From: a virus
Taxonomy: Duplodnaviria; Caudoviricetes
DNA length: 64,000 nucleotides
Strand: one strand, 5' to 3'
Virus record (IMG/VR): IMGVR_UViG_3300049595_005065
Shown here: positions 1,093 to 58,206 of the stretch, one piece after another
How the letters are laid out: every line of letters starts with the position of its first letter
How positions within the stretch are numbered: position 1 is the first letter of the stretch
Notes under the pieces: generated by a model
The model's database searches: none
Told to the model about the DNA's origin: nothing
The model's input: the letters and a program-made list of their open reading frames with translations, nothing else
Translations under genes and position numbers: made by a program

Positions 1093-1108
1093 GCCGCACG
1101 GAGGTGGC
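1093..1108 (+). promoter_or_regulatory. CsrA-type hairpin on the SD of the 1113 gene (GCCGC-ACGGAG-GTGGC)
   Basis: 5-bp stem (one G-U) with an ANGGAN hexaloop that contains the SD GGAGG 1100-1104; GTG start at 1113. Confidence 0.6.
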
Positions 1109-1112
1109 TACT

Positions 1113-3488
1113 GTGTACAACCGGAAGAAGACTGCGTCGTCGACGGCTCACTGGCTCCAGGTCGTCCGTTCTCACAACCGGACCCAGACCAAGCAGGCCG
1201 ATTTTGGCGGCAAGGGCGACTCGACCTCGTTCGAGCAGGCCTTTAGCAACCTGGCGCACGCCTATCTCCGCGACTCGGCGCCGAAGCTTCTCGACCACGA
1301 GATCGGCTTCCAGCTCCTCGACCGGGACCGCGAGAACACCAAGGCCATCGGGGTGTTCGCCTTCAAGGTCGGCTCGAACTGGCTCTACGCGCCCGTGTTC
1401 TTCCTGAACGGCGACCTCAAGGGCCACGAACTCCTGTACATCAAGAACCAGGACATGTTCGTACCGCTCAAGGAAAACTGGATCAACTACCTCGTCAACC
1501 GCAAGCCCAACATCCTGGGCTCTGGCGTCGAGCGGAACATGACCCAGCTGGGCATCCGTCAGCCCGACTTCACCCAGCTCTCCCGCAGCCCGGCAAAGTT
1601 CGGCTCGGCCCGTCCGACGCTCAAGGAGATGATGACGGCAGTCATGCCAGCCTTGGCCAAGACCGCCACGATGAACACGGCGCTGGCGTTTCAGGAGATC
1701 GGCCGAACGCTCGACCTGCCGAGGTTTCTTAAGGAAGCCCGCCTTACGACGATCGACATGCTCGTGAAGACGTTCCAGGACGCCCCGGCGCTGGCCAAGG
1801 CGTTCGACGAGTTCCACGGCCTGGACGTGATCAAGGAGGCCGCTGCTGCTGCCAAGGTGCGTGAGAACGCCCCGAAGATCGCCAGCGTCCTGTCGGAAGC
1901 GCCGGAAAAGAGCCCGGCTGTCGCCGGGCTCAAGATCATCGCCTACACGAAGACGGTGCAGATGAAGCTGCCGCCGGAGACGACCGAGGAGGATCAAGAG
2001 AAGCTGCTGCGCGACGGTGTGCTCATCCTCGACCAGCGCGACCGGGACAACGTCTCGATCCCCTATCACATCCAGGTCGAGAAGAAGCTCTGGAACCCGA
2101 CCAAGAGCGGCCTGTACGACATCCTCGTCAAGCCGGGCAACATCGAGCGGGTCTACATCGCCATGTTCCCGATGGGCGCCGCAAAGCGCTCGGACTTCGT
2201 GACCGTGGTCCGCACCGAGGGGAAGCCCGAGTGGATCAACACCCGCGCCGACCAGGTCTTCTGCATCGCCTGCCCGACCCAGCAGGAAGAGGAAGAGTGG
2301 TTCAACGGCCTGCCCGACGCCGACAGCCTGCCGTCGAGCGGCCGCTACATGCTCGTCAGCCAGCGCGGTGACGCCACCGTACCGGTCCGCGTGATCCGCG
2401 AGTACGGCGAGAGCGAGTTCGGCACGACGAGCTACGAGGTCCACATGGAGGACCACGCGAAGTTTCCGCCCAAGGGCTCGATCGGCCCGTGCGGCTACAG
2501 CGACCCGCTCAACTACGACAAGTGGCGCGACGGCGTGCGGATTCACCTCAACGGCAAGAAGGGTTCCAGCCTGCGCGCGAGCATGGGCGACATCTTCGTG
2601 CCCGAGGGTTTCAAGCTCCTCAAGTGCGCCCCCGGCGAGGATGACGCCGAGACGGCCGAGGACCAGGGCGCCTGCGGCTGCGGCTCGAGCGAGATGCCGC
2701 CGCTGATGCCGGGCAACCTGGCGGACGCCCAGCTCGAACTGATGAGCAAGACGGCCAGCCTCGAGGTCTACCACAACGGCACCGAGGTCGTGATCAATAA
2801 GGAAGCCGCCCGCAGCCCGATCGCGGCCATCGTGACGCTCGTTGAGCATCACGGCTTGCGCGAGGACGCTGCCCGCGAGATTCTCAAGCAGGCGGCCGCC
2901 AAGCGGAAGTTCGCCTGCCAGGTGAAGTACGCCGCTCCTTACGGTCCGCCGATGATGGTGAACCAGGGCCCGACGGCTCCAAGCGACCCGGGCCCGGTGA
3001 TGGGCGGCGAGACGATCATGGGCGCCGACGTGCCGACCCAGATGGGCATCGACATCGGCATGCCGGTGGCAGACATGTCGGCCAGCCTTACGGACCGCCA
3101 GATCTACAACCCGAACACCCGGCTCGACAAGAAGGACGTCCGCAGCGTGCTGCAGGCGGCCCAGTCTGGCCAGAAGGAAGTGTTCGACACGGCAATGATT
3201 GGCAGCATGCTCCGGGCCGTTCGGGACGACTCGATGGTCGATCGTTACATGGGCGATCTGACCAACGGGCTCGACAAGCTCGGCCGCATTCTGTTCATGT
3301 TCTACTGGCACGGCGACCGGTTCGCCGAGCGCTACGGCAAGGCCGACATGCCAGAGCTGGAGGACTCGCTCCGCAACGCCTTCGAGATGCTCGGCGACGT
3401 TATTCTCTTCCTCAAGCAGAAGACCATCGAGCCGTATCCGGAAGAGTCTGGCGCGGACGCCGATCTCTCCAATGTGGCCAGCGCATAA
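1113..3488 (+). CDS. large head-module/virion protein of unknown function (K-x-A-rich)
   Basis: Long ORF with GC3-rich codons, GGAGG SD 8 nt before GTG 1113, first gene of the head cluster. Confidence 0.75.
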   Translation: MYNRKKTASSTAHWLQVVRSHNRTQTKQADFGGKGDSTSFEQAFSNLAHAYLRDSAPKLLDHEIGFQLLDRDRENTKAIGVFAFKVGSNWLYAPVFFLNGDLKGHELLYIKNQDMFVPLKENWINYLVNRKPNILGSGVERNMTQLGIRQPDFTQLSRSPAKFGSARPTLKEMMTAVMPALAKTATMNTALAFQEIGRTLDLPRFLKEARLTTIDMLVKTFQDAPALAKAFDEFHGLDVIKEAAAAAKVRENAPKIASVLSEAPEKSPAVAGLKIIAYTKTVQMKLPPETTEEDQEKLLRDGVLILDQRDRDNVSIPYHIQVEKKLWNPTKSGLYDILVKPGNIERVYIAMFPMGAAKRSDFVTVVRTEGKPEWINTRADQVFCIACPTQQEEEEWFNGLPDADSLPSSGRYMLVSQRGDATVPVRVIREYGESEFGTTSYEVHMEDHAKFPPKGSIGPCGYSDPLNYDKWRDGVRIHLNGKKGSSLRASMGDIFVPEGFKLLKCAPGEDDAETAEDQGACGCGSSEMPPLMPGNLADAQLELMSKTASLEVYHNGTEVVINKEAARSPIAAIVTLVEHHGLREDAAREILKQAAAKRKFACQVKYAAPYGPPMMVNQGPTAPSDPGPVMGGETIMGADVPTQMGIDIGMPVADMSASLTDRQIYNPNTRLDKKDVRSVLQAAQSGQKEVFDTAMIGSMLRAVRDDSMVDRYMGDLTNGLDKLGRILFMFYWHGDRFAERYGKADMPELEDSLRNAFEMLGDVILFLKQKTIEPYPEESGADADLSNVASA

Positions 3489-3497
3489 GGGTGAAAC

Positions 3498-3893
3498 ATG
3501 GCAAGTACGATTTGGTCGGGCGAAACGACGTTTGAAGCTACGAGCGGCTCGCAGGCCGTGGTCCCGATTCGGGTGCCCCACCGCGGCATCATTCGCGGCT
3601 ACAGTTTGACGCAAACCAGCGGCGCCAACGCCGGTGCGGCCGCGGCGCTGTATACCAGCAAGCAGGACACCGCACCCAACAGCGGGCTGCCCGCCGAGGC
3701 GTTCCACATTCTCGACATCACGCTGCCCGCCGCAGCCAAGGTTGACGACCACAGCGCCGAGGTAGCGTACATCAATCGAGACGGCACCCCTACGAACCCG
3801 CAAAGATATCTTTACCTGAAGATCACCCCGGCGGGCACGGGCGCCAAGAACTTCGTGTTCTCGGTGACGATTGAAGTCCCGAAGATGGGCTGA
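3498..3893 (+). CDS. small beta-rich hypothetical (probable virion) protein
   Basis: 131-aa ORF, AAGGGTG upstream, TGATG coupling to the next gene. Confidence 0.7.
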   Translation: MASTIWSGETTFEATSGSQAVVPIRVPHRGIIRGYSLTQTSGANAGAAAALYTSKQDTAPNSGLPAEAFHILDITLPAAAKVDDHSAEVAYINRDGTPTNPQRYLYLKITPAGTGAKNFVFSVTIEVPKMG

Positions 3894-4822
3894 TGCTCCA
3901 AGCACTTCGTGATAACCCGCGCCGCGCGCCGAACTGGCGCTGGCTGCGGGCTGTTCAGATCGACGGCGGCGGCCCCAAGGCCACCCGCGCTATGGACGGC
4001 GAGGAGGGCTTTGCCTGGATCCGCCGCGCGTCACGCATGAAGCGCCGCTACGAAAAGGCGGGCAACCGCCCCGACGCCCTGTACCGGTTGGTCCAATACG
4101 ACCGGGACATGTTCTGGGCGCACTCGCTGTGGCTGGACGACAAGCAGCCCACGCGCTGGGCCATCGAGGCGTGCATCCTGGCGGGAGAAGCCACCGCCGT
4201 GATCGCTGAGCGCCTGGGAACCAGCTCGACGATCATCGAGGCGTATGAAAAGGTGTTCTTCGACGTCCGGGACCGGCTTGAAGAGAAACTTTACATCGTC
4301 AACGTGGTCATGGCGGACGCCGTGACCCGCGGCGTGTCCGAGCGGCAGTACGACCTGCTCTGGAAGCTCTTTGGCTACCACGGCGGACCCCACGTGCTGG
4401 ACGCGGTGATTTCCAAGGTTTCGCCAATCGCCAAGCCGGAGCGGTCGGACGACGTCGGCCAGTTCTTCCAGGACTTCGCCGTGAACACCGTGAAGCACAA
4501 GGCGGCCATCGCGACCCTGACGGTGCCCATTAACACCCACACCCAGCTGGCAATCATTGACAGCTTTGTGCAGTACTCGCAGATCGAGAAAACCAGCGAG
4601 AACGCCGGGAAGGCCCACGCCACGATCGTCGAGAACATTGGCGCCATGCTGGGCGCTTTGCCCTTCAAAATCGGCACCAAACTGGATTCGGCGACCGACA
4701 AAATGTTACCGTATGACAATGGCGCGGCTGAGCTGCGCAACGACGAACTCATGATCGTGGCTGCGGGTGGTAAACTATCTACCCAGCGAGTCATTGAAGA
4801 CCTGCGGTTTCCGGGAGAATAA
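3893..4822 (+). CDS. hypothetical protein
   Basis: 309-aa ORF, start overlaps the previous stop, typical codon bias. Confidence 0.75.
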   Translation: MLQALRDNPRRAPNWRWLRAVQIDGGGPKATRAMDGEEGFAWIRRASRMKRRYEKAGNRPDALYRLVQYDRDMFWAHSLWLDDKQPTRWAIEACILAGEATAVIAERLGTSSTIIEAYEKVFFDVRDRLEEKLYIVNVVMADAVTRGVSERQYDLLWKLFGYHGGPHVLDAVISKVSPIAKPERSDDVGQFFQDFAVNTVKHKAAIATLTVPINTHTQLAIIDSFVQYSQIEKTSENAGKAHATIVENIGAMLGALPFKIGTKLDSATDKMLPYDNGAAELRNDELMIVAAGGKLSTQRVIEDLRFPGE

Positions 4823-4824
4823 CC

Positions 4825-6159: not shown

Positions 6160-6170
6160 AAGGGACCGGC

Positions 6171-7370
6171 ATGGACGTCGATAAGCTGAACCAGTGCGCT
6201 GAAGCGCTTGCGATGTGCGCCGTGAAGGGCGAACGCTCTAGTCTGGAAAAGATCGCCGCTGATTACCAGAAGCAGGCGGTCATCGACATGGAAACCTTGA
6301 AGGGCTACATGTCGAACCCGTACGTGCGAAATTCGCTTATCGGCGCTGGCGCTGGCGGCTTGCTCGGCATGCTGCAGCCCAAACGCAAGGGACGCAACGC
6401 GCTCACGTACGGCCTGATCGGCGGCCTTGGCGGTCTCGGCAGCGCGGCGCTGCTCAACCAGTTTGGCGGCAAGGCCCCCGACCAGGCCGCGCCTGGTGCG
6501 GCTCCCGGCGCAGCGCCCGCCGCGGCTCCAGGCGCTGCGCAGCCGACGCTGGAAGAAGCCAAGAAGAACCTCGACGCGGCTGGCGCCAAGGTTCAGAACG
6601 AACAGGCGAATCCGTACCTCTACTCCGGCGGCGGTGCCGTGGGTGGCGGCGTAGCTGGCGTCGGTCTCGGCCGTATGATGGGCGAGGGCGCGGGTGAACT
6701 GGCGTCGCGGGCGCTGGGCCATTTGCGCGGACGGGGTAACGAAATCGGCGCGCTGACGAATGCCACCAATCTGCCTCGTGGCGACCAGGCCGTGGCGCAG
6801 GGCATTCAGCAGCTCCAGGACCGCTTCCGCCGCGCGCCCGGAAACGCGGGCAATGTTGCGTCGTTCGCCGACGACCTGGCCACCTCCCCGAATCCAGGAG
6901 TGCAGGCGGCTGTACAGCGAAATTTGGGCCCCGCCGCCGCAACCCCGATGCAGCCGCAGCAATCCGCGCAGCAGCTGGCGCGCAACGTGGAACGAATCGT
7001 CAATCGCGGGCGTCTACCGATTTTCGGCCGGGCCCAGGCGGCGCGGCAGCTTTCACAGGCGCAGGACTTGATCGAGGCGCAGCGGCTCGCAGCCAATCCG
7101 CCACGTCGAGGCGGCGTCATTCCGCCCACGGCCACCGCCCTAGGCGAACAGCAGATCCTCGACGCGCTGAACAACGCGCGCACCCGCACGCCGGTCATGC
7201 CGCGCTTCTTGCCGCGCGCTGGCGGCGTGCTCGGTGGTCTTGGACTTGGCGCCGCCGGTGCCTATGGCGGTTATCGCGCGGGTGGCGGGTATGCTGATTA
7301 CATCAATAACCCGCTCTTCAAGGCCTACGACCAGGCAGACGCCGCGTACCGCGCTGCTGGCGGAAAGTGA
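6171..7370 (+). CDS. Gly-rich protein with glycine-zipper-like hydrophobic segments, possible ejected/membrane-interacting virion protein
   Basis: LIGAGAGGLLG, GLIGGLGGLGSAALL, GGAVGGGVAGVGLG and GGVLGGLGLGAAGAYGG segments; AAPG repeats. Confidence 0.6.
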   Translation: MDVDKLNQCAEALAMCAVKGERSSLEKIAADYQKQAVIDMETLKGYMSNPYVRNSLIGAGAGGLLGMLQPKRKGRNALTYGLIGGLGGLGSAALLNQFGGKAPDQAAPGAAPGAAPAAAPGAAQPTLEEAKKNLDAAGAKVQNEQANPYLYSGGGAVGGGVAGVGLGRMMGEGAGELASRALGHLRGRGNEIGALTNATNLPRGDQAVAQGIQQLQDRFRRAPGNAGNVASFADDLATSPNPGVQAAVQRNLGPAAATPMQPQQSAQQLARNVERIVNRGRLPIFGRAQAARQLSQAQDLIEAQRLAANPPRRGGVIPPTATALGEQQILDALNNARTRTPVMPRFLPRAGGVLGGLGLGAAGAYGGYRAGGGYADYINNPLFKAYDQADAAYRAAGGK

Positions 7371-7377
7371 TACACCC

Positions 7378-10176: not shown

Positions 10177-10197
10177 ATCACACGGAGGTTTGAAATC

Positions 10198-10629
10198 ATG
10201 TCCAACTGCAGCAACCCGCTTGTCCAGAACATCGTCGACTACATCGGTTACTCCGATGCGGCGATGACCAAGGCCGCGGCGGTTATCCAGGAGCGGGAGG
10301 AGCAGGTTGAGAAGCTTGCCCACCTGATCCCCGAAGCCGTCAAGGTCTGCCTCGAGAACGAGCGGATCGAGCCGCACCAGAAGGAGGCCCTTGCGAAGGC
10401 CCTCGAGAACCCGGTGCGCGCCATGGAACTCGTGATCAAGCTCGCGGCGCATCGCAACGCCGCCGAGATGTCACGCCTGGGCACGCCGGTCGGCGCTTCG
10501 ACGAAGACCGCCGGTTACGACCCGTCGAACAGCCTGACGAGCGGGTATGTGGGCGCTCGTGATGGCAAGCTCAAGGCCTCGGACATCAAGCTGTTCCAGG
10601 GTCTTGGTCTGAACCCGCCCACTGCCTGA
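10198..10629 (+). CDS. small head-module protein
   Basis: 143-aa ORF with GGAGG SD at 10184-10188. Confidence 0.75.
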   Translation: MSNCSNPLVQNIVDYIGYSDAAMTKAAAVIQEREEQVEKLAHLIPEAVKVCLENERIEPHQKEALAKALENPVRAMELVIKLAAHRNAAEMSRLGTPVGASTKTAGYDPSNSLTSGYVGARDGKLKASDIKLFQGLGLNPPTA

Positions 10630-10631: not shown

Positions 10632-10674
10632 TCACACGGATCTGTGATTCCTACGAAAAAGACATGGAGGTCTT
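10632..10674 (+). promoter_or_regulatory. tandem CsrA-type hairpins upstream of the 10678 gene (TCACA-CGGATC-TGTGA and AAGAC-ATGGAG-GTCTT)
   Basis: Two 5-bp stems with GGA in the loop; the second carries the SD. Confidence 0.65.
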
Positions 10675-10677: not shown

Positions 10678-11262
10678 ATGGCAACTGCTCCCAATCTGAT
10701 CACCGAGAAGGGGCTTGACGTCAAGAAGGGCTGGTTCCAGATGGCCGCCCTCGACTACGACGCCAAGCTTTCTTCGGCCGTAACTTTTACTGTCCCGCGC
10801 GGTCGCGTGGTGCATGTCGATTCCGCTGGCGACTTCCGTCCTGGTGCTCACAACACCGGTGTTGCGATCTTCCTGCTTAACGGCAGCGGAGAGGCCGACG
10901 TAAGCAACCCTGGCTGGGGTCAGGGTCAGGGCGCTGGCGGCGCGAACGCCACCCAGTCTGCGGCCAACTTCATGCACATTGCCATCGCCCCGACCGGCAA
11001 GATGTCCGGCCTCGTGGCGACGGGTGGATACGAGATTGCGTCGACCGAATTCGACTCGTCTCGCAGCTACGCTCCTGGTGATCTTCTTACCGCGACGGCG
11101 TCGAATTCGAACGCCACGACCGGTGGTCGGATCACGAACGAGTCGGTCGAGCAGTTTGTGACGCCGGTGGTCGGTGTCGTGTCGTCCGGTAAGGCCAAGA
11201 ACCACAACGGGGCCTACGCGCTGTCCTTCTGGACGGTGTGGCTCCCGGGCGAGGCCGCCTGA
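10678..11262 (+). CDS. probable head decoration/capsid cement protein
   Basis: 194-aa beta-rich ORF directly before the major capsid gene, the usual position of lambda gpD-like decoration proteins. Confidence 0.55.
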   Translation: MATAPNLITEKGLDVKKGWFQMAALDYDAKLSSAVTFTVPRGRVVHVDSAGDFRPGAHNTGVAIFLLNGSGEADVSNPGWGQGQGAGGANATQSAANFMHIAIAPTGKMSGLVATGGYEIASTEFDSSRSYAPGDLLTATASNSNATTGGRITNESVEQFVTPVVGVVSSGKAKNHNGAYALSFWTVWLPGEAA

Positions 11263-11282: not shown

Positions 11283-11298
11283 GGAACATGGAGGTTCC
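11283..11298 (+). promoter_or_regulatory. CsrA-type hairpin on the SD of the major capsid gene (GGAAC-ATGGAG-GTTCC)
   Basis: Perfect 5-bp stem with ANGGAN hexaloop; exact (A/U)CANGGANG(U/A) match at 11286-11295; ATG at 11303. Confidence 0.7.
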
Positions 11299-11302: not shown

Positions 11303-12229
11303 ATGCCCACTCAGCAAGAAATCCAGCTGCTCAACGAGACCCTTTTCGAGCAGCTTGACACTCCCGGCATGCAGAAGCAGGCCGTGGACGCGGTTAACGA
11401 CTTCACGCGCACCAAGATGCGTGAAGACGGGTTCTACCGGCGGATTATGCCGCCGCTCACCATCACCAATGACGAGCTCGACCGCCAGGTCGATACCGAC
11501 AAGCCGGTGAAGGTGGTCGACAAGGAACCCGATTCCCCGGCGGCTGTGTCGCTCCCGTTCGCGACGCTCCCGATCAACTTCTACATCCGTGGCCCGCGCT
11601 ACCGCGTCATGTTTGACCGGATCGTGTCGCCCCGCGCTGTGAAGGACGTCGACGAGCTGCGCACCTACGTGATCGACATCCGTCAGGTCCTTTCCGACAA
11701 CATGATCAAGGACATGCTGGCGGAAGAGGATTCCAAGTTCATCGCCGCGTTCAACGCTGTCCTCCCGACCCCGGGCGTGGAGAACGTTGCGTCGGGCGCT
11801 GTCCAGTACGAGGAGATCCACGGCGGCATCACGCGTGAGACGATCGTCGACGCGCTGAAGGTCATGCCGCGGACGCCCTCGCACTTCGAGGTCGAGACCT
11901 GCCTGGTGAACAACATCACCATCAAGGAGCTGCTGAAGTTCGGCCGCGACGAGATGGGTGGTGATTTCTCCCAGGACATCATCAAGAACGGTTGGGCGGA
12001 GACCAACTTCCTCAACTGCCGCTGGATCGTGACGATCAAGCGCGACCTCGTGCCGGACGACTCGATGTTCATGTTCGCGTCGCCCAAGTTCATTGGCAAG
12101 AATTACGAGCTCGAGCCGACCACGATGTACATTCGTCGCGAGGCTTACATGCTCGAGTACTTCGCCTACAACACGCAGGGCGGTTCGTTCGGTCACACGA
12201 ACGGTCTGGCTCGCGTCGATTTCAAGTGA
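11303..12229 (+). CDS. major capsid protein (HK97-type fold)
   Basis: 308 aa, very strong codon bias, follows protease/scaffold/decoration genes; FYRRIMPP...RYRVMFDRIVSP...KDVDELRTY.ID...DNMIKDMLAEEDSKF pattern; strong hairpin downstream. Confidence 0.8.
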   Translation: MPTQQEIQLLNETLFEQLDTPGMQKQAVDAVNDFTRTKMREDGFYRRIMPPLTITNDELDRQVDTDKPVKVVDKEPDSPAAVSLPFATLPINFYIRGPRYRVMFDRIVSPRAVKDVDELRTYVIDIRQVLSDNMIKDMLAEEDSKFIAAFNAVLPTPGVENVASGAVQYEEIHGGITRETIVDALKVMPRTPSHFEVETCLVNNITIKELLKFGRDEMGGDFSQDIIKNGWAETNFLNCRWIVTIKRDLVPDDSMFMFASPKFIGKNYELEPTTMYIRREAYMLEYFAYNTQGGSFGHTNGLARVDFK

Positions 12230-16437: not shown

Positions 16438-16463
16438 CGCCGCGCGGCGAAACCAGGTATCGT

Positions 16464-44973: not shown

Positions 44974-47534
44974 TGACCGGACCTGTCGATCCCATTTTCG
45001 ATCCGAACAAGTGCGGTTTGGGCCCGGTCCCCAAGCCTCCGGTGCAGTTCGTCATCGATTGCAACATCGATGAGCCGCCGCCGCCGATCTTCGACTGCGA
45101 ACCGCCGAGCATTCCGCGCGAGCCGCCACCGCCGCCGTGCCCCGAGTTCACCGGCGAGGTCACGGTCACCGCCGCGCCGCAAACCTGCTCCGGACCCAGC
45201 GAGCCTTCCGGCGCTCTGCTGATCACCAAGGTAGACAACGACCCGTGCCGCTTTTCGATTGACCTAGACCTGGACATTCCAATTCCGCCCGCGCCGTGCC
45301 CTGAAATCAAAGAGGGCGAGGTTACGGTCAACGTTGGTTACGCCGGAACAGGTGCTGGGTGCGTTTCTGAGGCTACCGGCGCCATTATTATCACGCCGCT
45401 TCCCGAAACTGATCCGTGCAGCGACAGCGATGAACCAAGGTGCCAATTCCAGATCGATCTGAACCTGGACATTCCGATCCCCCAGCCGGTGTGCCCCGAG
45501 ATTAACGAAGGCACGGTCAGCGTCAACGTTGGCTACAGCGACTGCGTGTCCGGCGCCAGCGGCGGGTTCACGATCACCAAGAACGAGATTGAAGGAGACT
45601 GCAACACTCCGCCGACCTGCTCGTTCACGATCGACCTGGATTTGGACATCCCAATCCCCAAGCCGGTGTGCCCCGAGATTAACGAAGGCACGGTCAGCGT
45701 CAACGTTGGCTACAGCGACTGCGTGTCCGGCGCCAGCGGCGGTTTCACAATTACCAAGAATGAGACCCCCGGAGATTGCGACACTCCACCGACCTGCTCG
45801 TTCACGATCGACCTGGATTTGGACATCCCAATCCCCAAGCCGGTGTGTCCAGAAATCAACGAAGGAACGGTCAGCGTCAACGTTGGCTACAGCGATTGCA
45901 TCTCGGGCGCTAGCGGCGGGTTCACGATTACCAAGAATGAAACCCCTGGAGATTGCGACACCCCGCCAACCTGCGATTTCACAATCGACCTAAACCTGGA
46001 CATCCCGATCCCCAAACCGGTGTGTCCGGAGATTAACGAAGGCGCGGTTAACGTTAACGTCGGCTACAGCGATTGCGTGTCGCAGGCAAGCGGTGGTTTC
46101 ACGATCACCAAGACGGAAACGCCGGGTGACTGCGATACGCCGCCGACCTGCTCGTTCACGATCGACCTCAACCTGGACATCCCGATTCCCAAGCCGGTTT
46201 GTCCCACGTTCAAGGAAGGTGCCGTCAGCGTAAACGTCGGCTACGACGACTGCGTGCCGCAGGCAAGCGGTGCGTTTACGATCAGTAAAACCGAAACAAG
46301 CGGCGACTGCGACACTCCACCCACGTGCGAGTTCACGATCGACCTTGACCTGGACATCCCGATTCCCAAGCCGGTTTGCCCGACATTTTCCGCATCGGGC
46401 ACCATTGCTTTTGGCGCGCCATCCATCTCCGTCAACGGAAACGTCAACTCAACGCCTGGCGACTGCGACACGCCGCCGACGTGCGACATCACGCTGGGCG
46501 TGGATGTTGTTGTTCCCAACCCCGCGTGCCCCGTCATCAGCGGCGCGATCAGCGTTTACGAAGCAGAAGAACCTACCGGCACGGTTACCGTTACCAAGAA
46601 CGAAGGTCCCAGCGGCGCGTGCGAATTCAACATTGAAATTGATATTGGGGTGCCCAAACCAAAGTGTCCCGAGATCAGCGGTTCAATCAGCGTTTATGAA
46701 ACGGAAGAAGAGCCAACTGGCACTTTTTCTGTTACTAGCGGTGAAACAGCGAGCGGCATTTGCGAATTCAACATTGAGATCGCCATCGGGGTACCCAAGC
46801 CGTCGGGCGTCACGGGCCCCACCGGCCCCAGTGGCCCGAGCGGGCCTAGCGGTCCTTCTGGACCTAGCGGCGCAAGCGGGCCGAGCGGCCCTTCCGGACC
46901 CAGCGGCCCTAGCGGTGTCGGTGGTGCTACAGGTCCAAGTGGACCTAGCGGACCCAGTGGTCCGAGCGGCCCTCAAGGTCCGAGCGGCGTGGATGGCATC
47001 CCAGGCGCTACAGGTCCAAGTGGACCTAGCGGCCCTCAAGGTCCGAGTGGCGTGGATGGCATCCCAGGCGCTACAGGTCCAAGTGGACCTAGCGGCCCTC
47101 AAGGTCCAAGCGGCCCAGAAGGCCCTAGCGGCCCCAAGGGCGACCCCGGCGAACCAGGACCGTCTGGCCCTGGCGGCCCCAGTGGCCCGCAAGGCCCCAG
47201 CGGCCCAGCAGGTCCAAGTGGACCAAAGGGCGACAAGGGAGACACAGGCGACCCCGGGCTGCCCGGACCTAGCGGTCCCAAGGGCGACAAGGGAGACACC
47301 GGCCCCAGCGGCCCGAAGGGCGACAAGGGCGACCAGGGCGACCCAGGCGCGCCTGGTTCGTCTATTGTGGGCCCACCCGGGCCGCCAGGGCCGCCTGGGC
47401 CGAGCGGGCCGAAGGGCGACAAGGGCGACCCGGGCGACGACTGCGTCAAGGTCCCGGTGACCGTGCTGACTGGCATGTCGTGTTCCGGCGGAAACTTGAT
47501 TGCAGACACGACGACCATCGAGGTGTGCGAGTAA
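44973..47534 (+). CDS. fibre protein with 59-aa Cys-containing tandem repeats and a collagen-like (Gly-Pro-Ser) domain
   Basis: TGATG-coupled; repeat [22 protein letters not shown]...[10 protein letters not shown]; G-X-Y run from about 46806 to 47433. Confidence 0.8.
45479..46380 (+). repeat. 177-bp (59-aa) coding tandem repeat, five full copies plus degenerate flanking units
   Basis: Equivalent anchor positions at 45485, 45662, 45839, 46016, 46193 and 46370. Confidence 0.9.
46965..47107 (+). repeat. 63-bp near-identical direct repeat within the collagen domain
   Basis: AGCGGCCCTCAAGGTCC starts at 46965, 47028 and 47091. Confidence 0.85.
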
Positions 47535-47535
47535 C

Positions 47536-48231
47536 ATGCCTACGATCGATCTGGGCCCGTGCGGCTGCTGTTCGTCGTCGAGTAGTGCGCAGCAAGGCTG
47601 GGCGTGCATACTGGGCTGGGTTTGCGAGTCCTCGAGTAGCAGTAGTAGTAGCGCCAGCGGGTGTACAACTGACGCTGATTGTAAGTTTTGCCCGGCAAGC
47701 TACACCTATATTGAAGAGGCAAACACATGCTGCCCGCCAGGAACAGAGTGGGGCCCCTGGCCGCCAGACAATCCGAGCAATCCGCCCGCGTGCTACGGGC
47801 CCGGCGCGGTTACCTTCGGCGTTTCGCCGACAAATGGTTATTGCTGCAACGGTATTTGCAAAAATCCAGCGACTGATCTTGTTGGTTGCCAACCTGACAC
47901 AAGTCAACCGTGTTACGAGGCAACGTACGAAGATTGCGAGAGATCTGGAAACTCACCAACCATTTACCCGTGCGGTTGTCCCATTCCGTGTATTGATGGC
48001 GTCCTAGAGTGCCCAGAGGGTAATTGTCCGTGCGAAAATTATGTTTGCTGCCCGGACGGCTTTAACTGCGCAGCAACACTTGCCGAGTGCCCAGGTGTTG
48101 CGCCATTTACGGCACAAGTTGAGCAACAGCAACAGCTCACACATACACAAAATCCTCGTGTGCTCCCACTGCGCAAGGCGCCAGTGGTAAACTTGCCGAC
48201 AGACCGAACCGTCTACATTTGCAACGATTGA
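47536..48231 (+). CDS. Cys-rich, Ser-linker protein (probable fibre tip component)
   Basis: [17 protein letters not shown]...; many Cys; lower GC than flanking genes. Confidence 0.65.
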
Positions 48232-48234
48232 TTT

Positions 48235-51200
48235 ATGGGCTGCAGACAAGTCAACTGCGACGAATACCCGGACCAGCCGTGTTTCGACACCGAGCAGCAG
48301 TGCCGGTGCAACTGCCCGGGTAGCGGTGTCGACCCGGAAAGCCCAGAGTGCCAGAGCTCTACCTCTAGCGGTTCCAGTGACTCCAGCGGCTCCAGCGATC
48401 CTTGCGGCGATCCGCCAAAAAAGTGCGTCGGCGGCACGCTTGACCGAACAGCCACGACTTGCGTGTGCGTTTGCCCCGATGGTTCAACCGACCCGGCGGG
48501 CGGTAATTGCCCATGCGATAATCCAAATCATAAGCGCAACGCGAACGGGGAATGCGTCTGTGACCCAAACCCACCTTGTCTGGGCGGTTCTGTAAATCAA
48601 CTCGACTGCTCGTGTCAATGCCCTGACGGCGGAGAAGTAGCAAATGGTGCGTGTCCGTGCCCAGAAGATCTTTATGGCCCTGGTCACGTACGCGACGCAG
48701 ACGGCGAATGCGTTTGCGAACCACCACTTGTCTGCCTGCCGCCGTATAAACAGGCGACAGAAATAGGCGTTGACGGAGACGGCAACCCGATTAGCAAGTC
48801 CTTGTGCCGCTGCGATTGCAACACCAACGCTGTTACATGTGTGGGCGGCACCGTCGATCCCGCTCTTTGCGAATGTCGCTGTCCGTTTGGCACTACCCTT
48901 AAACCAACACAAAACGTCAACGGCCTTGGCGGCGAGTGCGTGCCGTGGACTTTCAATTGTGTTAACGGCGGTTGTTACGCCGTGGCAGAAGGAGGCGCGT
49001 ATCCCGACCTTGGTGCCTGCGGCGCCGCCTGCGGTGGCGGTGGCGGTGGAGGCGGCGGTGGAGGCGACCCACCTCCGCCGCCGTGCGTGAACTGCTGCGA
49101 CCCGATACCACTTCCGCCGCAGCCTGAGCCGCTGACCTGCCCAGACGGCACGGTATACGGCGCCATTGTTTACGAGACGTTTGACAAAGACGACTGCTCC
49201 TGGATCCCGACAACGCAGGAGTGGGGCACTTGCAATGGCAGCAGCAGTTCTACGTCGTCGTGCGATTGCAGCGCCGCCAATCCCGGACCGACCGAGTATG
49301 GAACAGCCTGCGGGCGCGCGGTTCCAATCAAACAGGGTGGCAGCACCGGCTGCTTTGGCGCTTACGCAAATTTGACGTGGTGTGATACTTGCGGCAACAA
49401 CGGTGTGCCGCAACTGAAGCGCGCTGATTGGTTCTATTTCAACAAAAACACCTGCGAGTTTGAACCGTCTCCAGGAAACGGCAACGGCGAGTTGCCCTGC
49501 CCCGGCGAGTCGTCATCCTCTTCGAGTAGCGGTGTTTCTTTATCGTCCACGAGCAGCGTCCAGTCCTCGTCCTCTGAGAGCAGCTACTCCAAGAGCAGCG
49601 AATCGTCCGACAGCAGCGCCTCTTCGTTGAGCAGCGCGTCTGACAACAGCGGCTCCTCGTTGAGCAGCACGTCTGACAACAGCGCCTCTTCATTGAGCAG
49701 CGCGTCCGACAACGGCGGCTCCTCACTGAGCAGCGCGTCTAACAGCAGCAGCTCCTCACTGAGTAGTACCGTATCTTCCAGCAGCGCCGTATCCTCCAGC
49801 AGTTCTTCCAGCAGCTCCTCCTGCGCGCTTGCCGAGCCGGTGGCCGTGTCGTTCGCCGGTTCAAGCGTTGGCGGCGTGCCGCTCAACTCGTTGATCGCTG
49901 GCAGCAAATATCGCGTCCTGGTGGCGACCACAAACGCCACGGCCATCGCCCAGGCTCAGGGCGAGTGGCAGCTGTATTCCAGCGCGGTGCCTGGCACCCC
50001 GATCAAGTCAGGCGATTTCACGCCCGGGCAGAATTCATTCACGTTTGAAGTGACGGCCGAGGAGATGCTCGCCACGCTGGGGTTGACGTTTGCGACGGCT
50101 TCGCCGGGGTCGTACTATTTTCCGCTCTGCGCCCGCTTGAACATTTGCGGCGCGGAGTACACAACCAAATGTCCTGAAGGGCAAAGCGTCACGGTCGTTG
50201 TTGGCAGTAACGTTGTTGCACCTAGCAGCTCTAGCAGCTCCAGCAGCGCAAGTGGCGCGTCGAGCAGCTCGGGCAGCAGTGTCGTCGCGATCAACTACGA
50301 GGCGGCGCAGCAGCAGTGGCTGGAGTACGGCACGGTGATCACGGGCGTGGTTAAACTCAGCACCGGGGAACTGTCTGCCGTTAACACCTATAACCGCAAC
50401 GCGTCTTTTTGCTCAGGCGCCGGGGCTCCCACGGTGTGCCGTTTGTGGGATGAAAACCTCAGCACCTCATTCACGCTCATGGCTTCGCTGCAGGCAGGAT
50501 ACGGATACTTTATCGAGCTGCGTCCCAACGCATCCGCGGGCGCGCCGGTTCGGGGCGTTCGCTGGTCCCCGGTGGGCCTCAGCAGTTTCTACAACGTGAA
50601 ACTGGAGTACCAATACCGTGCTTACGGAACCACCGGGCCGTGGCAAACCGCTTCCACAACGTTGACCGATAGCGGCGCGACCTACTACACCTACGCGTTT
50701 CCAGCCAACGTGGAAATTCTCAGCGTCCGTTTCATTGCCAGCGAATCGTACAGCGGCGGCGCGGTCCAGATCGGACTGCGCGAAATGGACCTGCAGTTCT
50801 TTATTTCAGGCGGTTCCAGTTCGTCCAGCAGCGCGACGCTGCCAACGATCGACTGGACCGCGGCCAAGCAGACGTGGCTGGGTTCCGGTCTCGTGCTTGC
50901 AGGCACGTGCCAGGTGAAGCACAACGGCACGTTTGTTACGGAAGAGGCCAGCACCAACTTTACAGGCCCAGTTTACAACTACCAGAACTGGCGCCGTTCG
51001 CTTTGCCCCGTCGCGGGCCCAACCTACTGTGTTTTGTTTGACGGAAATGAAAACACTGGCTGGTCGATGAACGCAAGCATGTTGAACACGGCAACTGAAT
51101 TGCAAGGTTACGGCGTCGAGGTGCGCCCCGCGGACGACAACGGCGAGCTTGGCGTGCCAGCGCTCGGTTTGGCATATCGCTTCGATGATCTGCCTGCGGG

Positions 51201-51483
51201 CGGAGAGAATGTGTCCAACCCGCCGCGCATTTATGTTTCGTATCAGTACCGCGCATACGGCAGCAATAACAGCTGGCAGTCGCAGTTTTTTGCGGTAGCC
51301 AGCCGCTCTACAAACGAAAGGTACAGGTACATCTACTTCCAACCCAACTCCGAGGTGCGCAAGATTCGAATCATGCAGATGTCCCCCGTTAAAAACATGA
51401 GCAACGTGGCGATCACCTATCACACCCAGCTGTTTTATCTGAACTCGCTTGACCTGTATTTCTTCTGGAATGAAATACCGTGA
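48235..51483 (+). CDS. large Cys-rich/Ser-rich adhesin-like protein with two duplicated C-terminal domains
   Basis: CxCxC-type repeats, Gly10-Pro5 hinge, poly-Ser tracts, and two ~190-aa copies sharing YQYRAYG and L[WF]DxN motifs. Confidence 0.75.
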   Translation: MGCRQVNCDEYPDQPCFDTEQQCRCNCPGSGVDPESPECQSSTSSGSSDSSGSSDPCGDPPKKCVGGTLDRTATTCVCVCPDGSTDPAGGNCPCDNPNHKRNANGECVCDPNPPCLGGSVNQLDCSCQCPDGGEVANGACPCPEDLYGPGHVRDADGECVCEPPLVCLPPYKQATEIGVDGDGNPISKSLCRCDCNTNAVTCVGGTVDPALCECRCPFGTTLKPTQNVNGLGGECVPWTFNCVNGGCYAVAEGGAYPDLGACGAACGGGGGGGGGGGDPPPPPCVNCCDPIPLPPQPEPLTCPDGTVYGAIVYETFDKDDCSWIPTTQEWGTCNGSSSSTSSCDCSAANPGPTEYGTACGRAVPIKQGGSTGCFGAYANLTWCDTCGNNGVPQLKRADWFYFNKNTCEFEPSPGNGNGELPCPGESSSSSSSGVSLSSTSSVQSSSSESSYSKSSESSDSSASSLSSASDNSGSSLSSTSDNSASSLSSASDNGGSSLSSASNSSSSSLSSTVSSSSAVSSSSSSSSSSCALAEPVAVSFAGSSVGGVPLNSLIAGSKYRVLVATTNATAIAQAQGEWQLYSSAVPGTPIKSGDFTPGQNSFTFEVTAEEMLATLGLTFATASPGSYYFPLCARLNICGAEYTTKCPEGQSVTVVVGSNVVAPSSSSSSSSASGASSSSGSSVVAINYEAAQQQWLEYGTVITGVVKLSTGELSAVNTYNRNASFCSGAGAPTVCRLWDENLSTSFTLMASLQAGYGYFIELRPNASAGAPVRGVRWSPVGLSSFYNVKLEYQYRAYGTTGPWQTASTTLTDSGATYYTYAFPANVEILSVRFIASESYSGGAVQIGLREMDLQFFISGGSSSSSSATLPTIDWTAAKQTWLGSGLVLAGTCQVKHNGTFVTEEASTNFTGPVYNYQNWRRSLCPVAGPTYCVLFDGNENTGWSMNASMLNTATELQGYGVEVRPADDNGELGVPALGLAYRFDDLPAGGENVSNPPRIYVSYQYRAYGSNNSWQSQFFAVASRSTNERYRYIYFQPNSEVRKIRIMQMSPVKNMSNVAITYHTQLFYLNSLDLYFFWNEIP
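49609..49770 (+). repeat. 33-bp (11-aa, SSLSSASDNSG-like) tandem repeat, 4-5 copies
   Basis: TTGAGCAGC(G/A)CGTC(T/C)GACAAC recurs at 33-bp intervals. Confidence 0.8.
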
Positions 51484-52073: not shown

Positions 52074-52081
52074 GGGGCACC

Positions 52082-53992
52082 GTGGCGCAGCCCCGACGGT
52101 TCGTGCTCAGCCACAAGCGTGCGCCCGGCGACACGATCGTCATGACGGCGCTCGTTCGGGACCTGGCGCTGGCCTACCCCGGCCAGTTCGAGATCGCCGT
52201 GGACACCAACGCCGCGGCCTTCTGGGAGAACAACCCCTACATCGTCCCCATGCGGGACATGAAGGCGCACTCGGGCGTGCGCAACGTCCGGCTCACCTAC
52301 GGCCAGGGGCTGCGGGACCAGCGCCAGGAGACTGTTCATTTCCTTGCCTATTTTCACAGGGACTTCAAAGCCCAAACCGGCATCCAGGTCCCGCTGACTC
52401 TTCCATACCCGGACATCCATCTGAGCCCCGAGGAACGCGCCCAGAGCCCCGTGGAGGGCCGCTACTGGGTGTTTCTCTCCGGGGGCAAGTCGGACTTCAC
52501 CACCAAGGTCTGGGGCGCCCAGGCGTGGCGCCAGACGGTCCAGGCGCTGACCGGCCTGGGGATCCCCCTGGTCCAGATCGGGGCGGCCAGCCAGGGGCAC
52601 TGGCACCCCGAGATCCCCGGCGCGCTGAACCTGGTCGGACGCACCGACCTGCGCGACTGGGTGCGGCTGGTTTACCACGCCGACGGGGTGATCTGCGGTG
52701 TTACCGGCGCCATGCACCTGGCGGCTGCCCTGCAGCGCCCCTGCGTCGTTCTGGCGGGCGGCAGGGAAGCCTGGTGGTGGGAGGCCTATGTCCGGGAGAA
52801 CGCCGGTCTGGGAGGCCTCCAGACGGCGCAGCAGCTCGCCATGCCCCACCGATTCCTCCACACGATCGGCCAGCTGGACTGCTGCCTGGCGCACGGCTGC
52901 TGGAAGAACAAGGTCCTGCCCATGAACAGCGACCCGTCCATCTGCAAATACCCGGTCGTCCAGCCGGGCCAGGCGGTGGCAAAATGCCTGGACATGATCA
53001 CCCCGGAACACGTCGTCGAGGCCGTCATGAGCTATTACGAGGACCGCAGCCTACCGCCCCTGAAGCCCCTGGATGAGGTTGTACGCTACCGTTCACCGGC
53101 CGTGAACGATCCCGTTCATCCGGCCGTGTATCCGAAACTCGCCGCCGATGCCCGCCTGGCCGTAGAAGCGCCGCCCGCGCAGGCCGCTAGCCGCCCGGGG
53201 ACGGCCGAGGACAAAGATATCTTTGACCACCCGATCATCGGCGGGAAGTTCACGGTCTTCGTCCTGTTCTACGGCCCCAAGGAGTTTCACCCGCTCCACA
53301 TGCGGTGCCTGAACTCGATCATCTCGACCTGCCCGCCCAACCGGATCGACCTGCGCGTCGGCTCGAACGAGCTGTGCGAGGAGACCTGCGCCGTGCTGGA
53401 CCGCCTGGCCGAGCACGGGATCATCACCAACCACTACTGTCACCCAGAGAACGCCCTGAAGTACCCCGTGATGCGCGAGATGTTCCACGACCCGGAGCTG
53501 CCGATCACCACGAACTACCTGCTCTGGTTCGACGACGACTCGATCGCCGACCGGAACCCGCAGTGGCTCACGCTGCTCACCCAGGCGATCCTGGCCAATC
53601 CGGAGGCCGGGCTGTTCGGCGCCGACATGACGATCCGGCTGGCGGGCGCGCAGCAGCAGCTGTTTCGCGCGCGGCCCTGGTATCGGGGCAAGCCGTTCCG
53701 TCTGAAGAACAAGACCCCCGCGCCCAACGGCGACCACGCGGTGTTCGTGGCGGGCGGCTTCTGGTGCATGAAGACCGAGGCGATGCGCGCCGCCGATGTA
53801 CCGGACCCGGAGATCACGCACAACGGCGGGGACTACACGATCGGCGAGCAGCTCTATCAGGCCGGGTATGACGTTGTCGGTTGGAACCGCCAGAAGCAGT
53901 ACATTTACACGTCGAGCGTGCCGCGGCGGGGAGCGTCGCAGCCGCACTTCGGAACGACCAACTGGCAAACCCAGATACGAGGCCAACGATGA
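52082..53992 (+). CDS. two-domain glycosyltransferase: GT9 (heptosyltransferase-like) N-terminus plus GT-A/GT2-like C-terminus
   Basis: PGDTIVMTALVRDL, LVGRTDLRD..RLVYHADGVICGVTGAMHLAAALQRPCVVL (GT9 motifs); YLLWFDDDS (DxD motif). Confidence 0.8.
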   Translation: MAQPRRFVLSHKRAPGDTIVMTALVRDLALAYPGQFEIAVDTNAAAFWENNPYIVPMRDMKAHSGVRNVRLTYGQGLRDQRQETVHFLAYFHRDFKAQTGIQVPLTLPYPDIHLSPEERAQSPVEGRYWVFLSGGKSDFTTKVWGAQAWRQTVQALTGLGIPLVQIGAASQGHWHPEIPGALNLVGRTDLRDWVRLVYHADGVICGVTGAMHLAAALQRPCVVLAGGREAWWWEAYVRENAGLGGLQTAQQLAMPHRFLHTIGQLDCCLAHGCWKNKVLPMNSDPSICKYPVVQPGQAVAKCLDMITPEHVVEAVMSYYEDRSLPPLKPLDEVVRYRSPAVNDPVHPAVYPKLAADARLAVEAPPAQAASRPGTAEDKDIFDHPIIGGKFTVFVLFYGPKEFHPLHMRCLNSIISTCPPNRIDLRVGSNELCEETCAVLDRLAEHGIITNHYCHPENALKYPVMREMFHDPELPITTNYLLWFDDDSIADRNPQWLTLLTQAILANPEAGLFGADMTIRLAGAQQQLFRARPWYRGKPFRLKNKTPAPNGDHAVFVAGGFWCMKTEAMRAADVPDPEITHNGGDYTIGEQLYQAGYDVVGWNRQKQYIYTSSVPRRGASQPHFGTTNWQTQIRGQR

Positions 53993-54647: not shown

Positions 54648-54678
54648 CGCGCTTGTGTGAAATGCCAGGGAGGGCAGT

Positions 54679-55218
54679 ATGAGTTGCGACCAGTCTTCGT
54701 CCTACGGCGGCGCGATCGATCTGAACGAGACGATCGGGATCAACTTCTACGCCCCCGATCCGCCGGTCACGCCGCCCAACGGCAGCGGACGGCGCATCCA
54801 GCTCACCTGGAGCGTGAGCCGTTACTACTTCCACGGCACTGACGGCGTGCGGGTGCGCATCGAGGCGGCCGAGGCCGCGCTGATGCCCGACAAGGTCTTC
54901 GCGTATTTGCTGCTCCCCATGAAGCCCGCGGCCGGTGAGCGGGAGGGCGCGTTCAGCCACATCTGTTCGCCCACCGACCTGGCCGAGTATCCCGAGGACG
55001 ATCCGCTTCCAGGCGTCCGCCCGGAGTTCTTCCGGCTCAACTACGTCGACGTGCAGCTCCGCTCGCGCTCCGAGGCCAAGGCGTTCATCCAGGATGTCTG
55101 CGACGACGTGCAGCGCCTCAAGAACACACTCGACCTCATGGACACGCTGCAGACCGGCGGCTCGCTTTGGATCGGCGGCGCACCTGCCCCCGACGTTTCC
55201 TCCTCGGAGAGCCTGTGA
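54679..55218 (+). CDS. hypothetical protein
   Basis: 179 aa, GGAGGG SD. Confidence 0.7.
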   Translation: MSCDQSSSYGGAIDLNETIGINFYAPDPPVTPPNGSGRRIQLTWSVSRYYFHGTDGVRVRIEAAEAALMPDKVFAYLLLPMKPAAGEREGAFSHICSPTDLAEYPEDDPLPGVRPEFFRLNYVDVQLRSRSEAKAFIQDVCDDVQRLKNTLDLMDTLQTGGSLWIGGAPAPDVSSSESL

Positions 55219-55520: not shown

Positions 55521-55610
55521 GCCGCAGCTAAATTTTGACACAAATCACGGCATATAAGGTGTACCACCAATATTGGTTTTGGCGGTACTTCCTTCATGGA
55601 GGTTTTTGCC

Positions 55611-55982
55611 GTGACCACTGTCACCTGGACTGAGCTGGAAACGATCGAAGGGATTATCAACGGGGCCATCATGCCCGAAGCCCTGCCGTTTGCGGCACTC
55701 TCAATCGACGAGCAGGCGGCCGTGATTTCTCAGATCGACGACGCCTGCGACGACATCGCCGCCGCGGTCGTCGAGGCCTATCCGGATCTCGACGATCCGG
55801 CGCAGCGGAATGAACGCCTCCGCCGCTACAAGGCCGAGGTCGTCCGGCGCCAGGACCCAGCGGTCCGGGCCATGTACGCGGAGTACTTCGACACCATCAT
55901 GGGTGTCTGTCTCCGGAACGCTTCTGGGCCGCGCGCTTTTGTCTCTGACGAGAGCGGCTGCCTGGATCCTGTCGCGGCCTGA
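55611..55982 (+). CDS. hypothetical protein
   Basis: GGAGG 55598-55602 then GTG 55611; AT-rich promoter-like gap upstream (TTGACA 55535). Confidence 0.6.
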   Translation: MTTVTWTELETIEGIINGAIMPEALPFAALSIDEQAAVISQIDDACDDIAAAVVEAYPDLDDPAQRNERLRRYKAEVVRRQDPAVRAMYAEYFDTIMGVCLRNASGPRAFVSDESGCLDPVAA

Positions 55983-56878: not shown

Positions 56879-57353
56879 GGAAACCTCCGAGAACCAGGAA
56901 CTAACCGTAACGCTGGCCAGTCTAGCGCCGATTCTGAAGCTCGACAAGTTGCAACTGCGCTCGGCGGCCCGCGTTTACAACTACGCCGACGAAAGCGCCG
57001 CCCTGCCCAGATTCGTCACCCTGCGGTTGCTTCTGACCGACCTCTTGGAGCGGCTGGCATTTTTGAAACCCAGCCAGCGCCAGGCGATTCTGGAACGATA
57101 CGATCAGGACATCGACGACAACCAAGACCAGTGGGAGACCCTGGCTTTCGCAGACGGCAACTGGGTCACCTGGACCGGCCATTACGGCTGGCTGGACTTA
57201 ACAACCGGCGACGTCGTGACCGCTCTCCCCGACGCTCCGGTGGAGACCATTGGGTACAATCTGGTGACACTGCATCACCGGGCGATCGCCCAGCTCAGGA
57301 AAAGGATTTCCGATGGCCAAGAACATTCTGCAGGAAGCGTGGACCAGCCGTGA
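56877..57353 (+). CDS. hypothetical protein
   Basis: Start at ATG 56877 or 56865; overlaps the next gene. Confidence 0.6.
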   Translation: METSENQELTVTLASLAPILKLDKLQLRSAARVYNYADESAALPRFVTLRLLLTDLLERLAFLKPSQRQAILERYDQDIDDNQDQWETLAFADGNWVTWTGHYGWLDLTTGDVVTALPDAPVETIGYNLVTLHHRAIAQLRKRISDGQEHSAGSVDQP

Positions 57354-57987
57354 AACTTTTGCGACGGTCCTCCTGACTCTCTTCCTGGACCGCTTCGGCA
57401 TGGAGGCCCTCGACTGGGACCCGGCCACCGTCACGCTGGAGATAGAGGAAGAGTTCGACGTCGATCTGCCGCGGCTGAGCCTCGACAAGCTCATGGTGGC
57501 AATTCAAATCCTGACCACAGACCGTTTTCACAAGTCGCTCCCCGACTTCGTGGAATTCTGCAATGTACTAGGCGGCGACACCTACAGCCCCCAGACGTTT
57601 GACCCGGCCGACGCCGAGGAGGTCGCCTGGGGGATCACCGAGAGCATGCTCATCGCCCCACCGGACGACGCGGACACCGAGCCGTTCAGCGACGAGATCC
57701 GGGCCTACATCGGCGCCGTGCTCGACCAGGAAGGGATTATCAACGCCCCTGACGTCCTGCGGATCGCCCTGCGCCGCGCGCGCATCTCGCCGTCAATCGA
57801 GGACTTCTCGGACGACCCGGAGATGTTCAGCGCAGTTTACGGGCTCGAGTCCGCGAAGACCGACGAGATAAATCAAACTATCGTCACGAAGACGCAGATT
57901 CTGGCCGCTCAGCTAGCGGCGCTGCAGCTTCAGAACGGAAACACTCAATCAGTCGCCAAGATGCTGCATGACTCTGTGCAGCGCTAG
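57313..57987 (+). CDS. acidic helical hypothetical protein
   Basis: 224 aa; SD AGGA sits in a GGAAA/TTTCC hairpin. Confidence 0.7.
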   Translation: MAKNILQEAWTSRETFATVLLTLFLDRFGMEALDWDPATVTLEIEEEFDVDLPRLSLDKLMVAIQILTTDRFHKSLPDFVEFCNVLGGDTYSPQTFDPADAEEVAWGITESMLIAPPDDADTEPFSDEIRAYIGAVLDQEGIINAPDVLRIALRRARISPSIEDFSDDPEMFSAVYGLESAKTDEINQTIVTKTQILAAQLAALQLQNGNTQSVAKMLHDSVQR

Positions 57988-58002
57988 GCAGAAGGGAACA
58001 TT

Positions 58003-58206
58003 ATGCTCGTCCTTTCTCGCAAGAGGAACGAGAAACTACTCATTGGCCACGACGTGAAGATTACGGTCGTCGAGATATTGCCCGATCGGGTTCGCTTAGG
58101 AATCGAAGCGCCAGAGCAGGTGAGCGTGGTGCGCGCCGAACTGGCCAAGAACTGGCACGGCCGCAAGAAGGCCGGAGAAAATGGGGTGGAACGACCGCCT
58201 GCCTGA
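58003..58206 (+). CDS. csrA: carbon storage regulator CsrA/RsmA homolog
   Basis: MLVLSRKRNEKLLIGHDVKITVVEILPDRVRLGIEAPEQVSVVRAEL matches the CsrA pattern ML(I/V)L(T/S)R..E...IG..V.I.V......VR(I/L)G(I/V).AP..V.V.R.E, including the RNA-binding Arg44. Confidence 0.93.
   Translation: MLVLSRKRNEKLLIGHDVKITVVEILPDRVRLGIEAPEQVSVVRAELAKNWHGRKKAGENGVERPPA

Follow-up and report, generated by a model that had tools for sequence, protein, structure and literature searches.

The architecture that CsrA and RsmE proteins bind with high affinity is an A-N-G-G-A-N hexaloop closed by a C:G pair, and typical targets of CsrA contain two or more GGA sites that are bridged by the protein dimer. Genes for CsrA are common on phages and plasmids, and the host is generally taken to be their target. 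Here, we report on a csrA gene and on a set of such hairpins at gene starts in a stretch of 64,000 nucleotides (nt; hereafter the window) of the viral record IMGVR_UViG_3300049595_005065 (Duplodnaviria; Caudoviricetes), which represents the structural-gene region of a ~200-kb uncultured freshwater jumbo phage. A first-pass annotation of this DNA had proposed that CsrA, of the phage or of its host, holds back the translation of virion genes through these hairpins. In the CsrA consensus obtained by systematic evolution of ligands by exponential enrichment, RUACARGGAUGU, ACA and GGA are fully conserved, and GGA is preferred in a hairpin loop (PMC4347634). The sites in the window display the corresponding flanking consensus, ACA-N-GGA-N-G(U).

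The closest described systems are the RsmE-hcnA and CsrA-glgC pairs of Pseudomonas and E. coli, which share with this locus a CsrA-family protein, a C:G-closed ANGGAN hexaloop overlapping the Shine-Dalgarno (SD) sequence, and the ACA...GGA signature. Unlike those pairs, both the regulator and its putative targets are viral here, with virion proteins among the targets, the leaders mostly hold a single site, and no decoy RNA of the CsrB/RsmZ type was found in the genomes scanned. The proposed arrangement would also resemble the CsrA-FliW-flagellin (hag) system of B. subtilis, in which the ribosome-site hairpin bound by CsrA belongs to the most plentiful structural subunit of a machine that assembles itself, but FliW was missing from the 28 relatives searched. 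In common with plasmid RsmQ, gp28 of phage PTXU04, and the CsrA of F116-like Pseudomonas phages, the present csrA lies on a mobile element; those proteins are thought to target host mRNAs, whereas here conserved cis-elements occur on genes of the phage itself. The targets of RsmQ are host mRNAs (PMC9928087), and knock-down of PTXU04 gp28 resulted in smaller plaques in a 2025 functional-genomics paper, which called the role of mobile CsrA in the phage life cycle untested (PMC11879866). Our literature search returned no paper on a phage CsrA controlling the phage's own genes. Phage proteins that stop translation by occupying RNA of an initiation region, as is putatively the case here, are represented by the MS2/Qbeta coat protein on the replicase operator hairpin, T4 RegA, and T4 gp32; their folds are unrelated, and the present candidate differs in being a borrowed bacterial global regulator with 6-40 sites per genome. 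What sets this case apart from host-directed mobile CsrA is the presence of cis-elements on the phage's own most abundant genes, which are supported by covariation in a large family and track the regulator.

The csrA gene, located by the first-pass annotation at 58003-58206, was confirmed by a match of its product to Pfam PF02599 (74.6 bits, cut-off 27; E=6e-21; covering positions 1-49 of the 53 in the profile), and residues 1-55 aligned without gaps to E. coli CsrA (1Y00). The RNA-contact residues of E. coli CsrA, which we take to be L2, L4, R6, R7, V40, V42, R44, and I47 in strands beta1 and beta5, correspond to L2, L4, R6, K7, V40, V42, R44, and L47 in the phage protein, two of these positions being conservative changes. 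Judged from these alignments, the gene is a true member of the CsrA family, and its likeness to solved dimers predicts an interlocked homodimer that binds GGA-containing RNA. The gene and the three hairpins supported by covariation are given below, with loops in brackets and minimum free energy abbreviated to MFE.

58003-58206, + strand: csrA, 67 aa, identified by Pfam CsrA PF02599, alignment to E. coli CsrA, and orthologues in relatives.
11283-11298, + strand: SD hairpin GGAAC[AUGGAG]GUUCC belonging to 11303-12229, the major capsid gene, MFE -6.2 kcal/mol.
10659-10674, + strand: SD hairpin AAGAC[AUGGAG]GUCUU of the decoration-like gene 10678-11262, an MFE fold.
17379-17396, + strand: SD hairpin UUAGGC[AUGGAG]GCCUGA of the sheath-like gene 17400-20225, MFE -12.3 kcal/mol.

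Comparison of orthologous leaders revealed that the loop was invariant at the capsid, decoration-like, and sheath-like genes, while the stems varied by compensatory pairs (GGAAC/GUUCC, AGAAC/GUUCU, AAGAC/GUCUU, GCAC/GUGC, UAAC/GUUA, GAUC/GAUC, and CAGC/GCUG). Covariation reached 0.380 among 37 distinct capsid leaders (0.134 when shuffled), 0.406 among 32 distinct decoration-like leaders (0.161), and 0.368 among 25 distinct sheath-like leaders (0.156); in each case none of 500 shuffles matched the observed value, and slid registers gave at most 0.21. The hairpins at these three genes are thus real, selected RNA structures, and the earlier view that differing stems around a kept loop reflect selection for structure is borne out by these relatives. 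The ACA trinucleotide was nearly invariant across the orthologous leaders, and base pairing to the tail of 16S rRNA does not account for it because the complement of the anti-SD upstream of GGAGG is UAA, with which ACA is incompatible. TAACTAA runs, which place stops in all frames, were seen ~10-40 nt upstream of the capsid hairpin in several relatives.

The functional labels of these genes differ in strength. The 308-aa product of 11303-12229 resembled a protein of Salmonella phage Arash that is annotated as major capsid protein (MCP; 28% identity over 96% of the length of the 308-aa product), which supports its assignment as the major capsid gene. The product of 10678-11262 had a confident predicted fold (predicted local distance difference test score, pLDDT, 82) with weak fold matches, all of them to capsid decoration or cement proteins, so that the model weakly suggests a decoration protein. 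Similarly, the product of 17400-20225 matched Pfam Phage_sheath_1 below the cut-off and has a homologue in Arash with a structural-protein annotation, weakly pointing to a sheath. The first-pass labels of a fibre for 37246-39141 and of a head protein are putative. By capsid sequence, Arash is the closest relative in culture; near its structural genes it encodes a protein resembling an RNA polymerase beta subunit (2731-4551), and the wider phage group may transcribe with its own polymerase.

Scanning for ANGGAN hexaloops with stems of at least 4 bp identified 10 hairpins on the + strand and 2 on the - strand of the window, compared with 3.0 +/- 1.7 in shuffled sequences. Six of these place the GGA of an SD in the loop, with the loop ending 3-16 nt upstream of the start codon, and two more contain a start codon; in all, GGA was exposed in the loop of a short hairpin at eight to nine sites. 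The same asymmetry was evident in relatives, with 28 hairpins on the + strand and 3 on the - strand of the complete genome G001 (shuffles 7.7 +/- 2.4) and 68 and 7, respectively, in G019. Stems accompanied 7 of 45 ANGGAN motifs at SD-like places and 5 of 259 elsewhere (Fisher p=4e-4). The commonest shape was A-C-[A-Y-G-G-A-G]-G-U, in which C:G, followed by A:U, closes a loop of six bases. The folding energy of the short leaders was not unusual relative to shuffles (z -1.2 to +1.2); because they fold no better than shuffles, stability alone is no evidence, and the signal is one of register, position, and conservation rather than of folding energy. Counting GGA-in-loop hairpins of any loop size was uninformative (173 on the + strand versus 160 on the - strand).

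Exact WCANGGANGW matches numbered 13 on both strands, compared with 6.3 +/- 2.2 in shuffles, 1 of 100 of which reached 13; 11 lay on the coding (+) strand and 2 on the - strand. The six exact matches listed by the first-pass annotation (10180, 10662, 11286, 37214, 37240, and 55594) were all present and all at translation starts, but that list missed five intragenic matches on the + strand (2443, 18709, 26879, 51931, and 58660) together with the two on the - strand. ACAYGGAGGU occurred at 10180, 10662, and 11286, and ACACGGAUGU at 37214 and 37240. The one-mismatch sites at 1096, 6169, 10634, and 17383 were as described. All five hairpins quoted in the first-pass annotation exist and are MFE folds; the sites at 10180 and 55594, however, are not loop hairpins, and two SD-loop hairpins (54663-54676 and 57298-57311) had been overlooked.

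The association with csrA was traced across the family, which comprises at least 65 related contigs in IMG/VR. Its 65 capsid protein relatives there shared 56-99% identity and came mostly from contigs 150-235 kb long, terminal repeats being present on several. Of 28 related contigs, 19 contain csrA, as do 17 of the 20 that were at least 90% complete. Fifteen genomes of relatives were taken into the comparison, with hairpins counted filter-free and synteny assessed by tblastn of each open reading frame (ORF). SD-hexaloop hairpins occurred at 6.4, 14.3, 5.2, 9.4, 5.9, 5.5, 1.9, 3.3, and 7.2 per 100 kb in csrA-bearing genomes and at 10.9 in the window, compared with 0 (G026), 1.0 (G025), and 1.6 (G027) in genomes lacking csrA (Mann-Whitney p=0.004). 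CAYGGAGG showed a coding-strand bias in csrA-bearing records (strand counts 0/16, 37/2, 32/3, and 25/3). When hairpins were classified by loop size and GGA position, the class with a loop of six and GGA at positions 3-5 dominated in csrA-bearing genomes (156 versus 86 in the next class), its first loop base being A in 110 of 156 and its closing pair C:G in 104 of 156, whereas in csrA-less genomes this class was barely ahead (58 versus 51) and began with A in 18 of 58. Since total hairpin density was no higher in csrA-bearing than in csrA-less genomes, the excess is specific to one loop register. Pseudomonas phage F116 has CsrA-like genes at 16229-16600 and 33363-33569, yet no SD-hexaloop hairpins were found in its genome, indicating that the measure is not trivially positive. 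One of the F116 genes (F116p47) lies inside the virion structural module.

The hairpins are found beyond the virion genes as well: in complete relatives, they occur genome-wide, before genes of all sizes, and a regulon built on them would not be limited to the virion. The ribosome site of csrA itself falls within an ANGGAN hexaloop hairpin in G019, with 3-bp versions in G021 and G023. The remaining sites of the window are as follows.

1093-1108, + strand: SD hairpin GCCGC[ACGGAG]GUGGC of gene 1113-3488, from scan and MFE.
6167-6180, + strand: hairpin CGGC[AUGGAC]GUCG, the loop of which includes the start codon of gene 6171-7370, from scan and fold.
10180-10189, + strand: ACACGGAGGU ribosome site of the helical, scaffold-like gene 10198-10629, with no stable hairpin, from motif and fold.
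10632-10647, + strand: upstream hairpin UCACA[CGGAUC]UGUGA in the leader of 10678-11262, an MFE fold.
37211-37228, + strand: leader hairpin UUCACAC[GGAU]GUGUGAA upstream of gene 37246-39141, an MFE fold conserved in G001.
37238-37251, + strand: hairpin GGAC[ACGGAU]GUCC containing the start codon of gene 37246-39141, from scan and fold.
54663-54676, + strand: SD hairpin UGCC[AGGGAG]GGCA of gene 54679-55218, from scan and fold.
55575-55616, + strand: strong hairpin pairing the UCAUGGAGGU ribosome site of gene 55611-55982, from fold.
57298-57311, + strand: SD hairpin GGAA[AAGGAU]UUCC of gene 57313-57987, from scan.

Several of these recur in relatives. The hairpin before the 791-aa gene 1113-3488 was retained in G001, G013, and five further relatives, the site at 54663-54676 has a counterpart in G001 and G018, and hairpins that place GGA by the AUG were found at the orthologous start of 37246-39141 in G001, G013, G015, G018, G019, and G021; few orthologues were found for 6167-6180. 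A clear second hairpin is present only in the leaders of 10678 and 37246. In the former, the upstream hairpin lies 12 nt before the SD hairpin with 11 unpaired bases between them, and relatives keep a hairpin at this position, with GGA not always in its loop. At 57298-57311, the MFE fold prefers the register GGAAA[AGGA]UUUCC. The structure at 55575-55616 (-20.9 kcal/mol, z -4.16, none of 200 shuffles as stable) pairs GGAGG with an upstream CUUCC and is a start-occluding structure, unlike the sites that display their loop.

The data establish csrA, the hairpins with their conservation and covariation, and the link between the two within the family; from these we infer binding, the identity of the CsrA that binds, repression rather than activation, and a role in timing as parts of a mechanism of the following kind. 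Phage mRNAs, those for the capsid, decoration-like, and sheath-like proteins and the 791-aa protein among them, would present the GGA of the SD or the start codon in a hairpin; the phage CsrA dimer would bind these hexaloops in competition with the 30S subunit; and the translation of abundant phage proteins would be held down or metered until the accumulating target mRNAs exceed the regulator. We consider the chances about even that the phage CsrA binds the hairpins and represses or tunes translation. The direction of the effect is proposed by analogy with the described systems, since what the loop exposes is the ribosome site; the 17379-17396 helix of the sheath-like gene, moreover, extends and pairs the AUG. 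A broader proposal, which we put forward only tentatively, is a self-contained viral Csr circuit in this freshwater jumbo phage family, in which CsrA would act on dozens of the phage's own mRNAs (capsid, decoration, sheath, and csrA) and the target mRNAs would serve as a titrating sponge, giving threshold or stoichiometry control of virion production without a decoy or FliW. If phage CsrA does act on these sites, a global regulator of bacteria has been turned to viral use, and jumbo phages possess a post-transcriptional layer of gene timing or dosage; were the self-contained circuit to hold, it would be the first virus-owned CsrA-type global translational regulon.

Several results weigh against regulation by the phage CsrA, or at least against its simplest form. 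Although sequence, structure, and position of the sites agree with CsrA leader sites, the multiple sites per leader of typical targets are mostly missing, a second GGA being no more frequent upstream of the hairpin sites than at other ribosome sites (mean 0.89 versus 0.90). GGAGG itself explains part of the motif, namely the sixth loop base and the closing G. No non-coding GGA cluster resembling a CsrB/RsmZ-type decoy was found in the window, G001, G019, or G020, FliW (PF02623) was absent from the 28 related contigs while control genomes matched, and none of the RNA sequencing runs searched for the phage contains it. Because G025, G026, and G027, the csrA-less, hairpin-poor genomes, form one outgroup clade in the capsid tree, the association with csrA amounts to approximately one evolutionary contrast. 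Moreover, G014 and G015 possess csrA with few sites, and G022, nested among csrA-bearing genomes, has 4.9 sites per 100 kb although csrA was found neither at the place syntenic to G020 nor anywhere in the 84% of the genome available; this leaves, as explanations, a csrA beyond the available sequence or hairpins able to work with a host CsrA. The three computational tests proposed in the first-pass annotation, namely enrichment, covariation, and co-occurrence with csrA, came out in favor of its regulon interpretation, which is partly supported.

The case of G022 leads to the possibility that the hairpins are docking sites for host CsrA, such that host physiology controls the phage mRNAs or these soak up host CsrA, the phage CsrA acting mainly on host mRNAs. 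A relative with 69% MCP identity was placed in a Nannocystaceae bin and phage fragments in an unclassified one, and both bins contain cellular-type CsrA genes in addition to one phage-type copy, which is also a point against regulation by the phage protein; the two bins weakly suggest a host with its own CsrA, the binning of phage contigs being unreliable. Mobile CsrA is seen as a host manipulator in PMC11879866 and PMC9928087, and the lack of hairpins in F116 demonstrates that csrA need not serve a self-regulon. We nevertheless regard docking of host CsrA as unlikely, given that hairpin density tracks the phage csrA across the family and that the leader of csrA itself has a hairpin in some lineages.

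Two further explanations do without CsrA. The hairpins could have a protein-free role, keeping the SD single-stranded in GC-rich mRNA or making short leaders more stable at their 5' end: the loop displays GGAG at the canonical spacing of 6-8 nt from the start codon, -10-like elements 35-50 nt upstream of several of these starts put the hairpins near 5' ends, and the second GGA sites mentioned above show no enrichment. This role would not account for the register, as the csrA-less genomes G027 and G022 (both GC 0.66) match the overall number of hairpins without the register or the preference for A as first base; in addition, the final G of GGAGG is base-paired in every case, a feature of no help to presentation, and ACA is conserved despite its inability to pair with the 16S 3' tail, so we judge it quite improbable. 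Recognition of the C[AYGGAG]G hairpin by another phage factor, such as an RNA-binding protein or a GGAG endoribonuclease in the manner of T4 RegA and RegB, seems very improbable. While most phage genes had no Pfam or PHROG match and could encode such a factor, no homologue of S21 was found, and RegA (PF01818) and RegB (PF10715) had no match in 15 relatives, searches in which control genomes gave no match either and which therefore lack a positive control; furthermore, the motif coincides with the consensus of CsrA, for which the phage has a gene. A search of the window against Rfam, aimed at decoy RNA, matched no family, and a peak of ANGGA motifs in G020, considered as a decoy, was rejected as a lysine-rich coding stretch.

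The phage DNA was detected in lake and freshwater metagenomes, and GenBank phages included nothing near-identical to the window. G001 was rejected as a twin of the window phage, DNA identity being just 73-82% across most aligned blocks. Long ORFs rich in GC at third codon positions (GC3) all lie on the + strand of the window, the GC content of which is ~63%, and the majority of its proteins had no match in Pfam and PHROG searches. The modeled product of 10198-10629 consists mainly of long alpha-helices, like scaffolding proteins, and the gene at 57313-57987 stops 15 nt upstream of csrA. Among the relatives, G019 (C1:11307-11513) and G018 (C1:88892-89107) encode CsrA-like proteins with a ~25-residue insertion between strands 1 and 2, an extra gene beside a normal copy in G019 and the sole copy in G018; variants of this kind are unusual for so compact a fold. 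The structural region of the window also encodes a family-9 glycosyltransferase (heptosyltransferase-like; 52082-53992, E=9.5e-13) and a collagen-repeat protein (44970-47534, E=2.9e-28), and GC3 across 44970-51483 is below that of the flanks. Conserved -10-like elements (TATACT, TAAATT, TATAAG, and TACAAT) precede several hairpin-bearing starts by 35-50 nt in the window and in relatives, suggesting that these genes may be transcribed from promoters of their own, giving short leaders in which the hairpin is close to the 5' end. In the window, such elements were observed as TATACT at 17348-17353 and TAAATTAT at 1061-1068, with others ~45 nt before 55611 and 57313.

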